Position numbers and translations under genes: made by a program. The notes below the pieces were generated by a model. That model saw only the letters and a program-made list of their open reading frames with translations. It was not told the DNA's origin and did no database searches. Below, one piece after another: positions 1 to 6,307 of a DNA stretch of 64,000 bases. Position 1 is the stretch's first letter, and every line of letters begins with the position of its first letter. The DNA comes from Treponemataceae bacterium. GTDB taxonomy: Bacteria; Spirochaetota; Spirochaetia; Treponematales; Rectinemataceae. The stretch is taken from the NCBI GenBank assembly GCA_963678065.2, contig CAXXVZ010000005.1, positions 928,001-992,000 on the forward strand, read 5' to 3'.

Positions 1-102
1 TCGGCGGGACAAAATGTGCCTGAGCGGAATGAGCGTATGCGAGTGAAGCGAATGGCCGAAGAGGGAGCTTGCGACCGATGAGCGTGGGCAGTGCTGTTAG
101 GC
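1..102 (-). repeat. attC-like site (truncated by the window edge)
   Basis: Same family as the other repeats; R'' GCCTAAC (minus) at 96-102, 12 bp after the stop codon of ORF 115-957. Confidence 0.85.
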
Positions 103-114
103 GATGGCGCATGA

Positions 115-957
115 CTACAATCGGGCAAATGTTGCTACTTCGCCACTTGTATTACTATATATTTTAAGTCCGATATATTCCCGATTGTTGCTTAATAAAA
201 CTGATCCCGTGGGAATAGACTTATCGTCATCTAAAACATGAACATTTATTATATCCTTTTCGGATGATAACACTTGACATATTTTTATCTCAATTTCATG
301 GTTCTTATTTATAAATAAGCAAAACATAAAAGTACTAATAGGTATTATTCCATCATATATTTTGAAAATACCAGTATATTGCCTTTTATTGTATTCAATC
401 TCGTTTTTTGCTCTATCTAGTGCGATTATACTCTCTGGAATTATTTTCTCATTATTTTCATATGGATCATAAATCGTGACAGAATTTAAATGACTATCAA
501 ATATAGGTATTATCGTTCTTATTTTCCCATCATTTGTAAATATTCCATTCGCGTCACGTTTCCCATCTTTTGTTTTATATGTAATCTGAGATATTTGATA
601 TGTTTCATTCATATAGATATTCTTTACAATTTCAGTTATTATTTTTAGTCCACCTTTATAATCTTGTAATATTTTACATAATTCTTCTATATTATTCTCA
701 TTTATGCAGTCATTTATAAGTTCTATCCCTTTTTTTATTCCTTTTTTCATAAATATTGTATTAAACCCAATCATTTTTTTAATGGGACTTTCTTGTTCAA
801 TCATTATAGCGTAGTCATTTACTAACCGCAAATCTTGATTCTGTATTTCTTTGTTATTAAATATAATTGTCACCAATATCCCAACAACAGCAATAATAAT
901 AGATGAGAATATTTTGGTTATCACATCTATTTTATCCCAGTTATCTTTGGTAGCCAT
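115..957 (-). CDS. Cassette protein, 280 aa: N-terminal TM helix plus a possible degenerate trypsin-like domain
   Basis: Hydrophobic IFSSIIIAVVGILVTIIF; NGIFTNDGKIRT and PTGSVLLSNNREYIGL resemble trypsin/HtrA motifs; RBS-like AAGGA upstream; very AT-rich. Confidence 0.7.
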   Translation of the reverse strand: MATKDNWDKIDVITKIFSSIIIAVVGILVTIIFNNKEIQNQDLRLVNDYAIMIEQESPIKKMIGFNTIFMKKGIKKGIELINDCINENNIEELCKILQDYKGGLKIITEIVKNIYMNETYQISQITYKTKDGKRDANGIFTNDGKIRTIIPIFDSHLNSVTIYDPYENNEKIIPESIIALDRAKNEIEYNKRQYTGIFKIYDGIIPISTFMFCLFINKNHEIEIKICQVLSSEKDIINVHVLDDDKSIPTGSVLLSNNREYIGLKIYSNTSGEVATFARL

Positions 958-985
958 TTTAATCTATCCTTTGTCATGCGCTTTC

Positions 986-1127
986 GCCTAACGTTCGCCT
1001 GCCTACGACGTTGTGGCGAGCATCGGCGAGCCACAATGTGCCTGAGCGGAATGAGCGATAGCGAGTGCAGCGATGGCCGAAGAAGGAGCCGACAGGCGAC
1101 TGATGAGCGTGGGCAGTGCTGTTAGCT
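986..1127 (-). repeat. attC-like site (142 bp)
   Basis: + strand gcctaac(986-992)...gttagct(1121-1127); L-box pair tgcctacg/cgtgggca; internal hairpin ttgtggc/gccacaa. Confidence 0.88.
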
Positions 1128-1195
1128 GATGGTTTGCCCCCCATCCATGTCTTTTCTCTCTTCACCTTATTCATTGTTCTTCAATATCTTATACC

Positions 1196-1705
1196 TTATA
1201 TCTTTATCCAATAATAACAATGTTCATGTTCTATCTTTTCCAATATCCCATTATTCCATTCTATTACTTTTCTTGATCCTCTGTTGGTTTCATCACATGT
1301 TATCAATACATCATTCACATCACGTTTCTTTATTTCGTTCAATGTCAGTTCCAATAACTTCTTCCCATACCCCTTATTTCGTTGTTCTTTCCGAATCCCA
1401 TATCCTATATGCCCACCATGAGCACGCAATTTATCGGTTAAGTAATGCCTCATTTTTGAGTACCCTAGTACTTCTTCATCATCCATAAGCCAATATATTG
1501 TTTGTGGCACATATCCTTTTTCAAGCTCAGGAGCTTCATACTGCGCAATAAGTTTTTCGATATATCCCGGATACTCTTCCCATGAGATCCCATATCCACC
1601 ATTCATAAATCCATTTTCTTCTTGATCAATCGATTGTAGCATCTGATAAATGTTTCTATTCGTTGTATCACGTTCAGAAACCTTCTGAATGTAAATCCTA
1701 CCCAT
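1196..1705 (-). CDS. Cassette GNAT-family N-acetyltransferase (169 aa)
   Basis: GHIGYGIRKEQRNKGYGK acetyl-CoA motif; LITCDETNRGSRKVIEWNNG; ATG 1705 with AAGGAA RBS. Confidence 0.9.
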   Translation of the reverse strand: MGRIYIQKVSERDTTNRNIYQMLQSIDQEENGFMNGGYGISWEEYPGYIEKLIAQYEAPELEKGYVPQTIYWLMDDEEVLGYSKMRHYLTDKLRAHGGHIGYGIRKEQRNKGYGKKLLELTLNEIKKRDVNDVLITCDETNRGSRKVIEWNNGILEKIEHEHCYYWIKI

Positions 1706-1859
1706 AATAATTCCTTGAACTATACACTGTAGTACCATAAAACCAGATCGGGTCATTTATGCGCATAAATTTGATATCCAAAGTCTCAAACATGAAGATA
1801 AATTTCGCATGCATTAAAACATAGGTATCTGCACATCTGATCTTGGGGGGCAAACTTTC

Positions 1860-1998
1860 AGCTAACGTTCTGCCTGTTTGCGACGATGGCGCGAGCATCG
1901 GCGAACGCCATTGTGCCTGAGCGAAATGAGCGTATGCGAGTGCAGCGATGGCCGAAGAGGGAGCCTGCGACCGATGAGCGTGAACAGCGCTGTTAGTT
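1860..1998 (-). repeat. attC-like site (139 bp)
   Basis: agctaac(1860-1866)...gttagtt(1992-1998); nearly identical to 3308-3445. Confidence 0.88.
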
Positions 1999-2118
1999 GC
2001 AGTCGTGACCTTCGAGCGCGCTTGGATGGGGAGACTTGTCTCCTCATCCAATACTCTATCTTGCGCGCGTTCTTTTCTTCCTCTTCTCTTAACCTTATTT
2101 TTTCACGATTGCAACTAA
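1866..2118 (-). mobile_element. ORF-less cassette, copy 2
   Basis: Only ~114 bp between R boxes; 30-nt near-palindrome at 2022-2051 and a polypyrimidine tract; near-duplicate of 3314-3570. Confidence 0.8.
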
Positions 2119-2253
2119 CGTATGCCTGCCTGCGACGTTTTGGCCCGCATCGGCGGGACAAAATGTGCCTGAATGAAACGAGCGAATGCGAGTGGAATGA
2201 AGGCCGAAGAAGGAGCCGAAGGCGACTAATGAGCGTGGGCAGCGCTGTTAGGC
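2113..2253 (-). repeat. attC-like site (141 bp)
   Basis: aactaac(2113-2119)...gttaggc(2247-2253); L-box pair tgcctgcg/cgtgggca. Confidence 0.88.
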
Positions 2254-2335
2254 GAAGTATTGATTTCCGGTCTATACTAAATCATCGCTGTGCTGAACGC
2301 CCGGAGGGCGAAGCAAGGCGATACAATTGCATTCT

Positions 2336-3238
2336 TTATTTTGAATATATTTTATTGATTAATTCTTTTAATTTATCAAAATCAAAACTAGCATATTCTA
2401 TACTGTTATTTATATTATTCGTTTCATCGATCTGTTGCTTCTTGAAATTGAAGGAAATATGATCTACTCTATTATCAGCTAAAAGCATATTCTTAAAATA
2501 GTTGAATAATTTGCTATATTGATCAACTTCTTTTTCTGATAGATTTTCATCTTGATTTACATAATAACCAATAAATGCAGTAATACCAATAAAGTATTTT
2601 GCACAAACTAAAATTAGATTTTTATCGTATTCGATTAATGGGAAAAATCCTTTTTCAAACAACCCATATTCTTCTAATCCTTTCCAGTTACTGTGAACTA
2701 TAGTATTTCCTTTCAGATAAATATGTTCCCAAACTTCTATGCCATAATTCATTAACTTTTTTCGGATATTTCCTTCTCTATATTCCTTGTTTTCTGGGTT
2801 TTTTGCCCAATTATCTGTTGATGAAGGTTCTAAAGTAAAAAGAAGTAACTGAAGCAACCTGCTTTGCAGTGAACGAATAATTATTGCTGCATCAAAATAA
2901 CATTTGTTCTTTATAAGTACGTAAATACTTTTTATCGTTTGGATGTTTTGCTTAATCTGTAACATATAGTACCAGTCGAAATCTTTCCTTTTATCATTCT
3001 TTGAATCTTTTCGAATAATTCTATAGATTGCCATATAAGTATTTGCCATGATCATAAATTCATCAAATTGATAATCCTTACTATTCCAATAATCCCGAAT
3101 CCTAAGTCCTCCGCTTTTCTGAAAACAAAATGCTTCAACAACTGGTATTGAGCTACAGCCTTGAGGAACACCCATTTTTAGTAAATGAATCATTTTCTCT
3201 TTCATCAACTCATCGTTTATAGTAAATTTATCTTTCAT
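2336..3238 (-). CDS. Cassette protein, 300 aa, possibly DUF5677/HEPN-like
   Basis: ATG 3238 (the upstream ORF extension runs through the attC); SIYVLIKNKCYFDAAIIIRSL...W...YLKGNTIVHS pattern; AT-rich. Confidence 0.65.
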   Translation of the reverse strand: MKDKFTINDELMKEKMIHLLKMGVPQGCSSIPVVEAFCFQKSGGLRIRDYWNSKDYQFDEFMIMANTYMAIYRIIRKDSKNDKRKDFDWYYMLQIKQNIQTIKSIYVLIKNKCYFDAAIIIRSLQSRLLQLLLFTLEPSSTDNWAKNPENKEYREGNIRKKLMNYGIEVWEHIYLKGNTIVHSNWKGLEEYGLFEKGFFPLIEYDKNLILVCAKYFIGITAFIGYYVNQDENLSEKEVDQYSKLFNYFKNMLLADNRVDHISFNFKKQQIDETNNINNSIEYASFDFDKLKELINKIYSK

Positions 3239-3307
3239 TTTGTGTGAGCCCGACGGCCAGAGTCCCGGGCGAACCTTTATAAAATTTAAGCCGGAAATCA
3301 ATATTTC

Positions 3308-3445
3308 GCCTAACGTTCTGCCTGTTTGCGACGATGGCGCGAGCATCGGCGAGCGCCATTGTGCCTGAGCGGAATGAGCAAAGCGAGTGCAGCGATGGCC
3401 GAAGAGGGAGCCTGCGACCGATGAGCGTGAACAGCGCTGTTAGTT
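3308..3445 (-). repeat. attC-like site (138 bp)
   Basis: gcctaac(3308-3314)...gttagtt(3439-3445); L-box pair tgtttgcg/cgtgaaca; internal hairpin atggcgc/gcgccat. Confidence 0.88.
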
Positions 3446-3570
3446 GCAGTCGTGACCTTCGAGCGCGCTTGGATGGGGAGACTTGTCTCCCCATCCAATA
3501 CTCTATCTTGCGCGCGTTCTTCTCTTCCTCTTCTCTTACCCCTATTTTTTTCTTTCACGATTGCAACTAA
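3314..3570 (-). mobile_element. ORF-less cassette, copy 1 (first position of the array)
   Basis: No credible ORF; perfect 14-bp-stem hairpin ttggatggggagac-tt-gtctccccatccaa at 3469-3498. Confidence 0.8.
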
Positions 3571-3666
3571 CTATGTGTCTATGAATTTGTGGGAAAAAAT
3601 TTGATGGGGATTTTAGCTGAATGGAGTAATTTGTTGTGGGGATTATTAGCTGAAAGGAATTGTGGG
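3565..3666 (-). other. Putative attI-like recombination site
   Basis: G|TTAGTT core (3571-3565) not preceded by attC sequence; imperfect direct repeats at 3598-3621 and 3628-3654. Confidence 0.65.
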
Positions 3667-3699
3667 TAATGTGTATGGGATGGGTGAAGTACGAACATG

Positions 3700-3728
3700 C
3701 AGATAGACATATACTGAAATTATGTCAA
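3700..3728 (-). promoter_or_regulatory. Candidate cassette promoter (proximal)
   Basis: TTGACA-17bp-TATCTG pointing toward attI; the -10 box is weak. Confidence 0.4.
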
Positions 3729-3828
3729 ATACAAACCAGTCATTTTCTGGTGGCGAGTTGGTGGAAATATCGAAAGCAGGATATGGACTCGGCCGAAACG
3801 CGATGGCATAACCGGCATTTCTATTTCC

Positions 3829-3856
3829 ATTATAAAGACATCCTGCTGGAATGCAA
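3829..3856 (-). promoter_or_regulatory. Candidate cassette promoter Pc (distal)
   Basis: TTGCAT-16bp-TATAAT pointing toward attI. Confidence 0.5.
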
Positions 3857-3894
3857 CAAAATTTTACTAACCATATAGGACATTTTTTTAAACA

Positions 3895-5076
3895 TCATGA
3901 CTCAACTTCACGATCGAGCGGGCTTGTGATGCTGAGGACGTTCCTTTTGGCAACATGTGTGTAGACCTGGGTGGTTTTCGGGCTGGCATGTCCTAACAGG
4001 ACTTGGATATAACGCAAATCCGTACCGTCTTCGAGGAGGTGCGTGGCGAAACTGTGACGGAGGCAGTGGATTGAGACTTCTTTGTCGATATTGGCTGTAG
4101 TTCGTGCACGGTAGAAGATTTCTTCCATTGAGCGGATGCTCAGATGGCCGCCTTTCTGGCCTTCGAAGAGCCAGGCTTCGGGGTTGTACATCTCGATGTA
4201 GGAAAGAAACAATTGACGGGATTTTTCGGCAAGAAGTGTATAGCGGTCTTTCCGGCCTTTGCCGCCGCGAATGAAAATGACTCGCCGGTCAAGGTCGATG
4301 TCGCAGGTCTTCAGGCGCGCGATTTCGCTGACGCGAAGGCCGCCGGAATATGCGAGGGATAGTATCAGTTTGTGTTTTAGGTTCTTAGGAGCTTTGATGA
4401 TGCGAAGGGCTTCGGGACGGCTGAGGACACCGGGAAGATGTTTGTCGGCTCGGGGCCGATGTTCGATTTGCAGTGGAAGGCCGAGAACGCGGTTGAACAG
4501 AAATTTCAGGGCGCTGATGACTTGGTTCAGCGTGGCGGCCGCCGCTCCGTTTTTCCTTCCCAGCATCGACAGGTACTCCTGAACATCGTCGATTGTGGCG
4601 CGCTCAAGGGGGTGGGGGACGATGAACGCGTTGAAGCGTTCGGCGATGGCTGTGTAACGGCGCGCTGTCTTGGGGGAGTATTTGTAGGCGGACAGAACGT
4701 CGCGGAGTGTTCGGGAAACATTAGCCGGAAGCGAAGAGGGAGATTGCGTTTCTTCGGGGGAAGGGGATCCGGAATCAGGACGCCTGATGGTGAAGGGGTT
4801 CACTACCGGCAAGGGCGCTGGCTGGACGGCTTGCGCGGATGCTGTCGTCGGCTTGCCTTTCGCGATGATGGTCCATGTCGAAAAAGCTGCTTTAAATAAG
4901 GAAAGATTTTCAACGGGAAAATTCCAAAACCTGGAAGCGTCGTCGAATCGTCGACCTGGAACAAGTTTGATAAGGCGAACAAACTCATCGGAGTATTCGG
5001 ATTGAACGCGAATACGCGAACCGTCCAGATCGGAAATGACGATGATCCGTCTGACTTCAGCGCGGGACTGCATCAC
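3895..5076 (-). CDS. Tyrosine recombinase / atypical integron integrase, 393 aa
   Basis: GLRVSE, GGKGRKDR, HCLRHSFATHLLE, LLGH, TQVYTHV (R-K-H-R-H-Y intact); SAM-like N-domain YSPKTARRY...ATLNQVISALKFLF. Confidence 0.93.
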   Translation of the reverse strand: MMQSRAEVRRIIVISDLDGSRIRVQSEYSDEFVRLIKLVPGRRFDDASRFWNFPVENLSLFKAAFSTWTIIAKGKPTTASAQAVQPAPLPVVNPFTIRRPDSGSPSPEETQSPSSLPANVSRTLRDVLSAYKYSPKTARRYTAIAERFNAFIVPHPLERATIDDVQEYLSMLGRKNGAAAATLNQVISALKFLFNRVLGLPLQIEHRPRADKHLPGVLSRPEALRIIKAPKNLKHKLILSLAYSGGLRVSEIARLKTCDIDLDRRVIFIRGGKGRKDRYTLLAEKSRQLFLSYIEMYNPEAWLFEGQKGGHLSIRSMEEIFYRARTTANIDKEVSIHCLRHSFATHLLEDGTDLRYIQVLLGHASPKTTQVYTHVAKRNVLSITSPLDREVES

Positions 5077-5310
5077 TGTTGTACCTGCCTCTCGTCACTA
5101 GATCGCACAGAGGGGGCGCGTCTGATTGAAGAGGTCAGAGGAAAAGCATGAATAAATGCCTGTCTCGGGAAGGAGACCAAGCGACTTGGCGACAGTAGGC
5201 CTATCGGTCTCCTTGACGGAAACTGATCGCAGTGTGCGAGCAATGAACCCGGCGGACAGGTGCTGAACTCTGGCTCGCTTGCCTGATTATTCGCATAGAC
5301 CCTGGATCAC

Positions 5311-5449
5311 ACGGTATGGCGCCGCTTGTCAGAATGGGAGATCAGAAACAGACGCTGGAGACCAGAGGCCAGACGGTGGTGCCGTTTATCAGAATAGGAG
5401 ATCAGAAACATAAGTTGGAGATCAGAGGATAGACGGTGGCGCCGTTGTC
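5311..5449. repeat. Degenerate 60-bp tandem repeat (~2.3 copies) overlapping the thrB 3' end
   Basis: Lines starting at 5341 and 5401 align at period 60 (atcagaaaca...tggagaYcagagg..agacggtggYgccgtt). Confidence 0.75.
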
Positions 5450-6307
5450 GGCGGCGGCAAGGGGGATGATTTTCCAGGAGGGGCCGGGAAGGTTTGCGAG
5501 GAAGGGTGTCATAGCGGAAATAAAGCCGGTATTGGTGGCTTCAGTGATGGCCATAATGGTGGGGCCGGCGCCGCTCAGGAAGGCTGCGAGGGCGCCGGAT
5601 ACCTTGCAGCAAGAGACGATTTCGTCGAAGTGGGGAATGAGGGGAGCACGGTAGCGCTCATGAAGACGGTCGGCGCAGGCGAACTCGAGCCGGGGCCAGT
5701 CGCGGACAAGGAAGGCCGCGGTTGTAAGGGCGGCGCGGCCGGAGTTGAAGACGGCGTCCTTGAAGGGCAGCGTGGAGGGGAGCGCGGCACGGGCGACCGA
5801 GGTTTCCAGTTCGAAGTCGGGGATGAGGGCGTTGAAGCAAAGATCGGCTCCGATGGAACTCCGGACCGCATGGACTTTGCCGTCCTCGAGAATGGCGACG
5901 GCAAAGCCTCCGAGGAGTGCCGGCGTGACATTGTCGGGGTGACCTTCCATGCGCGCGGCGAGGTCGAGGACTGTGTCGCGGCCTAATCTGCCGCCGAGGA
6001 GGGTGTCCGCGGCGAGAAGGCCGGCGACGATGCAGGTGGCGCTTGATCCGAGGCCACGGGCGATGGGGACTTCCGTCATGAACCGGACTGAAAGAGCAGG
6101 AAAGGGCGCGCCTGCGGTCTCGAATCCGAGACGACAGGCCTGGATGAAGAGATTGTCGGGGCCGGCATGGGCGGGATCGCATCCGCGCAGAACGAAAGAC
6201 TCCGAGAGTTCGACGTCGAATTGGTTGTACAGCCCGAGGGCGATGCCGAGACAGTCGAAGCCGGGACCAAGGTTAGCGCTAGTCGCGGGTACGCTGATGC
6301 GGATCAT
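5402..6307 (-). CDS. thrB: Homoserine kinase
   Basis: VPATSANLGPGFD, PIARGLGSSA, EGHPDNV, LSGAGPT. Confidence 0.95.
   Translation of the reverse strand: MIRISVPATSANLGPGFDCLGIALGLYNQFDVELSESFVLRGCDPAHAGPDNLFIQACRLGFETAGAPFPALSVRFMTEVPIARGLGSSATCIVAGLLAADTLLGGRLGRDTVLDLAARMEGHPDNVTPALLGGFAVAILEDGKVHAVRSSIGADLCFNALIPDFELETSVARAALPSTLPFKDAVFNSGRAALTTAAFLVRDWPRLEFACADRLHERYRAPLIPHFDEIVSCCKVSGALAAFLSGAGPTIMAITEATNTGFISAMTPFLANLPGPSWKIIPLAAADNGATVYPLISNLCF

Follow-up and report, generated by a model that had tools for sequence, protein, structure and literature searches.

Among described cassette-capturing elements, the closest in plan to the locus treated here are the sedentary canonical integrons, represented by V. 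cholerae VchIntIA with its VCR sites and by IntI1. In these, a tyrosine recombinase serves an attI with a G|TT crossover, in the 7-5-7 layout of attI1, and a long array of promoterless, AT-rich cassettes follows, each with one attC site, with a bottom-strand bias, some gene-less members and a cargo of GNAT acetyltransferases, toxin-antitoxin and defense-type genes. All of this recurs in a Treponemataceae bacterium (assembly G000, 5.27 Mb in 5 contigs, completeness 99.94%, contamination 6.72%), in the 64,000-nucleotide stretch that we analyzed and call the window (G000:C5:928001-992000), where a tyrosine recombinase, P0001, heads a cassette array. Unlike the canonical integrases, however, P0001 is without the I2 helix and the β4-β5 hairpin, and the sites of its array, unlike canonical attC sites, have no extra base in the L box, have spacers of 5 versus 7/8 nt, carry an (A)CGTC motif and lie in cassettes with cognate ends of 9-10 nt.

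Other described systems share less with the locus. The Treponema "inverted-integrase" integrons, as the relevant passages of Wu et al. 2013 (PMC3607928) present them, differ in having the full insert, a catalytic span of 138 aa and canonical attC sites with a protruding G; an integron of this type is present separately in G000, on contig C3. The "integron-like" tyrosine recombinases, among them enzymes of IS91 and IS3 elements (Smyshlyaev et al., 10.1101/542381), resemble P0001 as close IntI relatives without the insert, and in the passages of that work that concern them no insert-less member is tied to cassette arrays. In this genome, the copies of IS91 type differ in being followed by what we read as a transposase-like frame, in lacking attI, cassettes and the N-terminal domain of P0001, and in branching apart. 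No Y2 transposase gene, the mark of IS91-associated recombinases, lies beside P0001, whose neighbors are the cassette array and thrB-thrC. XerC, XerD and archaeal XerA share an insert-less catalytic domain with P0001, and XerA provides the closest fold matches. A survey, in the part that deals with the matter, found and dismissed 50 non-IntI recombinases near attC sites (PMC4889954). In the literature searched, in which subscription journals were poorly covered, we found no description of an I2-less cassette system, and we think it somewhat unlikely that one has been published.

The locus is real and probably works like an integron, and by its missing insert, its clade and the geometry of its attC sites it stands outside the IntI family. 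Our reading, to which we give a probability of about 0.7, is that it represents a second integron class, in which an I2-less integrase would recombine the folded bottom strands of its own type of site; the activity is what we infer, and what is observed directly is how the array is built, that the catalytic residues are intact, where the cassettes begin and end, the geometry of the sites, the linkage in relatives and the separation of the two arrays.

A recombinase without I2 at the head of a 177-kb array

The features of the window that enter the argument all lie on the minus strand:

3895..5076, minus: tyrosine recombinase P0001, 393 aa, with HARP-like domain, linker, and core-binding and catalytic domains; without the IntI insert; transcribed towards the array
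4849..5049, minus: N-terminal HARP-like domain of P0001, residues ~10-76 (Pfam HARP match, fold matches)
3565..3583, minus: attI-like site, made up of a 7-nt left box, a 5-nt spacer and G|TTAGTT; inferred crossover 3571/3570
3314..3570, minus: cassette 1, gene-less, 257 bp; first at attI, with ~50 copies across the array
3308..3445, minus: attC-like site 1 (top strand = minus strand); repeat, site profile
2119..3313, minus: cassette 2, 1195 bp; ORF 2336-3235, 299 aa, weak DUF5677 match; 24-nt terminal inverted repeat
2113..2253, minus: attC-like site 2; repeat, site profile
1866..2118, minus: cassette 3, gene-less, 253 bp; second copy of cassette 1, 98% over 168 nt
1860..1998, minus: attC-like site 3; repeat, site profile
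992..1865, minus: cassette 4, 874 bp; GNAT acetyltransferase ORF 1196-1756; 6 related copies in the array
986..1127, minus: attC-like site 4; repeat, site profile
1..991, minus: cassette 5, extending past the window; ORF 115-957, 280 aa, no Pfam family
1..102, minus: attC-like site 5, truncated where the window begins (<1-102); the array goes on ~173 kb further, to G000:C5:754,679

An earlier reading made from the sequence only (the sequence-only reading) had placed the five sites and the AT-rich cassettes at these coordinates, with G|TT at 3571/3570, and had counted 23 residues between GKGRKDR and WLF in P0001; all of this holds, the 23 residues exactly and the G|TT as a minus-strand feature. 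Its claim that P0001 lacks the IntI signature insertion is borne out by the alignment as well. It had not noticed how large the array is, that two cassettes in the window (3314-3570 and 1866-2118) are gene-less, the HARP-like domain of the recombinase, or the canonical intI on another contig. The catalytic span from R to HxxRH is 96 aa in P0001 versus 138 in IntI1 and the spirochaete IntIs, against which P0001 is short of ~31 residues, the I2 region with its RKYP motif, and of ~10 further residues at the β4-β5 hairpin; the match to the VchIntIA structure (PDB 2a3v) is split. The catalytic residues R248, K273, H337, R340, H363 and Y372 are all present and are invariant in 77 aligned sequences, drawn from 121 proteins. 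P0001 scores 197.3 bits on the integron integrase model TIGR02249, under the cut-off of 265, and it also falls below the cut-off of each Xer model (TIGR02224, 172/335; TIGR02225, 164/330; NF040815 for XerA, 213.8/220). Its AlphaFold model (mean pLDDT 81.5) finds its best fold matches in XerA and VchIntIA.

With the site profile 179 sites are detected, all of them on the same strand; they run from C5:931,449 to 754,679, over 177 kb or 3.4% of the genome. Elsewhere in the 5.27 Mb the same profile gives 1 partial match, and thus the array is not a chance pattern. Since 8 of the 179 sites have no clear ends and were excluded from the geometry counts, a few of the counted "cassettes" are merged pairs. 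Among the 171 cassettes with clear ends, ORFs lie mainly on the top strand in 96 and on the bottom strand in 12, and 63 have none of at least 80 aa; the GC content of cassette DNA is 26-37%, versus ~59% for the genome. Cognate inverted repeats of 9-10 nt close 161/170 cassettes, versus 29/170 for non-cognate pairs. In 11 of 12 repeat groups, identity is higher for a cassette's own site than for the preceding one, so that cassettes travel with their downstream site; 36 different cassette starts follow 49 gene-less copies, and certain duplicated cassettes are 99.9-100% identical at separate array positions. Because repeated cassettes keep the downstream site and swap neighbors, the minus strand is the top strand and the cassettes have been shuffled, with the crossover narrowed to within GTTA. 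The window probably holds the platform and first cassettes of a sedentary superintegron of a second type, with co-oriented cassettes, one downstream site each, bounded by RYYYAAC/GTTRRRY.

The cargo, judged by Pfam matches of 106 distinct AT-rich ORFs, includes many GNAT acetyltransferases and PIN-domain proteins, together with ParE, HEPN/HepT, HicB, Fic, RelA/SpoT, Schlafen, Mrr, HNH, a restriction-modification pair and a streptomycin adenylyltransferase. Such cargo is usual for integrons. Distal cassettes (L169:13982-14833 and 3647-6059) encode, respectively, a streptomycin adenylyltransferase-family protein and a restriction-modification pair of BsuBI/PstI type. Within the gene-less cassette lie a tract rich in purines and a near-perfect palindrome of 30 nt (window 3439-3571 and 1992-2119), and its ~50 copies (G000:C5:755-931 kb) often stand in tandem, as many as five in a row; another gene-less type is present in 3 copies.

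Contigs from 4 studies (4 of 23 listed runs) contain the platform at 3567-5113 or more, and the longest platform-bearing pieces differ at 0-13 letters; the assembly itself may derive from one of the runs. The joints in these contigs arise from repeats and carry no weight for excision; in runs X6 and X10 the platform is covered and cassettes 2 and 5 are not, a gap in cover that proves nothing. A search for sigma-70-like promoters at window 3300-5450, which takes in the first gene-less cassette and the recombinase gene, gave 0 sites, and Rfam models run over window 1-5200 gave nothing beyond one chance match at E 0.47. Two tandem 60-nt repeats, 83% alike, lie between the recombinase gene and thrB (window 5317-5436).

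Site geometry and probable strand use

In canonical attC sites 5 and 5-6 nt separate the R boxes from the L boxes, and L'' contains a single extra base. When the canonical L-box model is run from the cognate R box, none of the 171 C5 sites reaches 5 of 7 pairs; 139 of them pair best at +2 or +3 on the R' arm with an unbulged L box, whereas the 11 C3 sites chosen by the canonical model pair at -1. With the spacer asymmetry goes the (A)CGTC motif on the R' arm, seen in 170/171 C5 sites and in 0/11 canonical C3 sites. In each of 170 sites compared, the bottom strand is the one that folds better (mean -27.9 vs -20.9 kcal/mol), partly via G.T pairs that are C.A mismatches on the top strand of the L stem, and all 4 window sites analyzed form an end-to-end hairpin. 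A lone unpaired base nearer the R box, on the opposite arm, is present in some folds and absent from some relatives.

We take the folded bottom strand as the probable substrate because the two R boxes of one site are 115-130 nt apart and because it is pairing, not sequence, that is conserved. A cassette would then begin with the TT that follows the crossover and end with the G of the site downstream of it, and the folded site would present paired R boxes, then an asymmetric loop formed by 2-4 extra bases on the R' arm just beyond the cut, then the unbulged L stem. P0001 would exchange one strand at G|TT, either between a hairpin and double-stranded attI (7-5-7 core) or between two hairpins, and replication would resolve the junction, by analogy with IntI integrons. 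The asymmetric loop, replacing the L-box extra base read by I2, would set strand and orientation; excision plus reinsertion at attI would shuffle and duplicate cassettes, while the canonical IntI of C3 would work on its own array.

The same geometry bears on the alternative that P0001 does serve the array, but with double-stranded sites as its substrates and through two strand exchanges, in the manner of Xer, or with a host partner, the hairpins being incidental. R boxes at such a distance form one core only through folding. Moreover, L-stem sequences vary among lineages while their complementarity is kept, and what would be C.A mismatches on the top strand are G.T pairs on the bottom. Double-exchange recombination also requires central homology, and attI does not have the same 5 nt in front of G|TT as the array sites. 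The alternative does gain from the XerA structures being the best fold matches, from weak folding z-scores, and from the lack in P0001 of both segments, I2 and the β4-β5 hairpin, that contact extra-helical attC bases in the VchIntIA structure (PMC3053210, in the part that treats these contacts). On balance we regard it as improbable.

Two cassette systems in one genome

The genome also encodes a canonical IntI (G000:C3:96,962-98,137; 450.6 bits), at the head of an inverted-type integron with 14 canonical-type sites up to C3:124.7 kb (L001). The site profile finds no C5-type sites in the C3 array. Conversely, 1 canonical site lies inside the C5 array (G000:C5:773-776 kb, L170), where it is interrupted by a group II intron that shares 93% identity with an intron of the C3 array; the cassette to which it belongs lies nested within another, at an internal GTT of the latter, off any array crossover. 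Separate arrays with near-zero overlap of site types mean, therefore, that two cassette systems coexist in this genome and hardly exchange.

A second alternative is that the C5 array is an orphan cassette cluster served in trans by the C3 enzyme, with P0001 a bystander. The raw material for it exists: a canonical intI is in the genome, one canonical cassette sits in the C5 array, the site of the gene-less cassette has a canonical-like register, and IntIs accept varied sites, according to the section of PMC3053210 that deals with their targets. Against this, the C3 array holds no C5-type cassette, and the lone canonical cassette went into an internal GTT; such arrays also exist in genomes where no IntI was found, and an attI-like site is similarly placed behind many homologues of P0001. 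We consider service in trans improbable. The sequence-only reading had named, as grounds for its own rejection, a canonical intI elsewhere together with homologues unlinked to arrays. The first is present, on C3; the second is not what was found, because homologues adjoin arrays even where no IntI was found.

A 1.4-kb IS with a 397-aa ORF occurs in six cassettes of the C5 array and in the C3 array (five copies 99.7-100% identical, the sixth 97.5%), and its presence in both arrays argues, the contamination estimate notwithstanding, for a single lineage as the origin of the C5 and C3 contigs. More canonical sites occur at C3:823k, 854k and 2,358-2,370k, and two of these have IS91-type recombinase genes next to them. 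A partial canonical site (G000:C2:660.7 kb) and a partial altered-type site (667.5 kb) lie 7 kb apart, outside both arrays. The loose genome-wide canonical scan also flagged sites of gene-less cassettes, through register ambiguity.

Relatives, ancestry and meaning

Named homologues of P0001 come from Rectinemataceae and other Spirochaetota. A close homologue is present in 23/215 genomes of the order, and 19 of these 23 have no IntI match, while 91 of the 215 overall have one; this count scored at most 9 candidates per genome, while for individually named genomes all candidates were scored. The family profile matches 98/301 phylum genomes sampled, in some of which the presence of an array was checked. 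The search for related loci with P0001 alone gave 2 loci; L003 and L045 are one contig. Among dozens of homologues at 40-58% identity, the insert-less span is 96-102 aa in nearly all and 108-113 aa in three. These three (family f20; L137, L144 and L136) have a 12-17-residue insertion at the I2 position, with no RKYP motif.

Linkage to arrays, which the sequence-only reading had proposed as a check, is found. An altered-type site lies within 2 kb downstream of 17/49 homologue loci and a canonical site of 0/49, whereas 12/25 canonical IntI loci have a canonical site there (shuffles, 0/245 and 0/125); loci with too little downstream DNA were left out of this test (order, 11/36; phylum, 8/32; IntI, 5/30; other recombinases, 1/6). 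"Altered-type" calls at 5/25 canonical IntI loci were rejected; 4 proved to be canonical sites read again from a repeated AAC, and the other was unrelated. Over longer stretches, sites are present in 13 of 20 homologue records, three or more of them in 11 records; not one of these 98 sites agrees with the canonical model, and in 95 the best pairing is at +2 to +4. The single-contig genomes G039 (7 sites seen) and G400 (13 sites seen) gave no IntI above the cut-off, and neither did G311, G468, G505, G072 and G027. An attI rule derived from 6 loci, 5 of which fit it (the window attI does not), identifies the motif in 13/27 held-out loci of the order (shuffles, 1.2%), in 0/19 other recombinases and in 0/4 plasmid loci. 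The array of G434 (L133) consists of two blocks in opposite orientation. On architecture, linkage and sites, then, the proposal of a distinct cassette-capture class is supported, with the refinement that the sites themselves are non-canonical.

Several observations weigh against our reading of an I2-less integrase that recombines its own folded sites. Bottom-strand folding of the 4 window sites is unexceptional relative to shuffles (z from -0.09 to -2.14), and base composition accounts for part of the strand bias. For the site of the gene-less cassette there is a second, canonical-like register, with 6 of 7 pairs from an upstream AAC, and the canonical IntI in the genome has apparently put one cassette into the C5 array. 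The left box of the window attI fails the motif rule, being 2 positions off the box of its closest relatives, and the motif is missing at 14/27 order-level and 24/25 phylum-level loci. Seven of the 20 homologue records have no site, by a detector that must be insensitive, since it also missed both canonical control arrays. The G311 and G468 sequences are incomplete, most relatives are drafts, and kin are not independent. Finally, the homologue in G027 (L033) meets its array at the gene's 3' end, in mirror orientation.

Where P0001 comes from was addressed with trees of 67 sequences over 270 columns, the N-terminal domain and the IntI insert being excluded (FastTree, and IQ-TREE fast mode with SH-aLRT). 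The 14 IntIs are monophyletic in both (FastTree 1.0; SH-aLRT 100), with P0001 outside, and P0001 branches with other array-linked spirochaete homologues, the deeper order being weakly supported. It is also outside the Xer groups in both trees, and the genome has separate XerC/D-like genes. "Xer-like recombinase," the term of the sequence-only reading, thus does not hold for ancestry, where the enzyme lies outside both IntI and XerC/D. The trees neither separate I2 gain from I2 loss nor unite the I2-less family as a single clade. I2 may have been gained later or lost early, as the tree fits either, and the I2-less family may keep a state ancestral to IntI.

The N-terminal domain complicates the picture. 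Residues 10-76 of P0001 match HARP (PF07443) at a borderline level (E 1.5e-5; 24.8 bits, cut-off 25), and 14/77 aligned sequences match it at E <= 0.05; the fold matches are T4 UvsW and archaeal XPB N-terminal domains (middling Z of 6.3-6.6, rmsd 2.0-2.1, 55-60 residues), and in the ESM Atlas residues 1-80 matched unnamed clusters alone (0.89-0.90). The domain is present in 16/22 family members and in 28 of 31 canonical IntI loci (30 from the order plus IntI1, which is without it), and in 0/19 other recombinases. That this domain replaces I2 was considered and ruled out, because canonical spirochaete IntIs have it too. The N-terminal domain, the co-orientation and the attI layout are ties between the two integrase types. 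The shared domain and co-orientation are also what could be said for P0001 as a recently broken IntI, its insert deleted and its array a frozen relic. That notion is largely refuted and we regard it as highly improbable: the insert-less span recurs in those dozens of homologues at 40-58% identity, a fully supported IntI clade leaves P0001 out, and cassette duplicates at different places are 99.9-100% identical.

The family is not confined to spirochaete chromosomes. Plasmid records with a match number 83, of which 50 are from Acinetobacter. On Bacteroidota plasmids, of Chryseobacterium and Rufibacter, the homologue is followed by co-oriented genes parted by altered-type sites; the Chryseobacterium plasmid L066 (NZ_CP041688.1, 10130-19017) has four copies of a gene-less cassette, with an IS110 and a group II intron inserted at sites. 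On L067 (NZ_CP094546.1, 6139-8088), the one Acinetobacter plasmid examined, the homologue is truncated by IS26 and aligns with 61% of P0001 at 46.5% identity; behind it come an attI-like GTT and then tet(X3) with partly matching ends; the locus fails the strict attI and site rules, and the site downstream of tet(X3) is incomplete. The Acinetobacter gene upstream of tet(X3), the "xerD" reported beside tet(X) variants (PMC7473080, PMC11194056), is this truncated homologue. Those papers, in the portions that discuss the gene, call it XerD and describe no cassette system, and one asks whether XerD mobilises tet(X). A joint proposal, which we hold tentatively and at somewhat short of even odds, is that cassettes can be captured on folded single-stranded sites without I2 and that a widespread HARP-bearing, I2-less family represents the ancestral state that gave rise to IntI, with arrays that are orthogonal to those of IntI even when one cell has both, that evade IntI-trained detectors and that would have fed resistance genes such as tet(X3) from Bacteroidota to plasmids.

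In the literature on integron evolution (PMC7790495, PMC9024848), at least where the insert is discussed, I2 is treated as defining integron integrases and as enabling single-stranded recombination, and the lack of evolutionary intermediates is listed as a limit. Because the C5-type sites are themselves non-canonical, detectors trained on IntI integrons might miss them altogether, not label them orphans as the sequence-only reading had allowed, and many overlooked arrays would be added if our reading is true. It could also explain the recurring "xerD" genes beside resistance genes in Bacteroidota. With both cassette systems side by side, this genome offers a ready-made comparison of specificity, and an I2-less enzyme with hairpin sites of its own would, if our reading is true, be either such an intermediate or a second solution.

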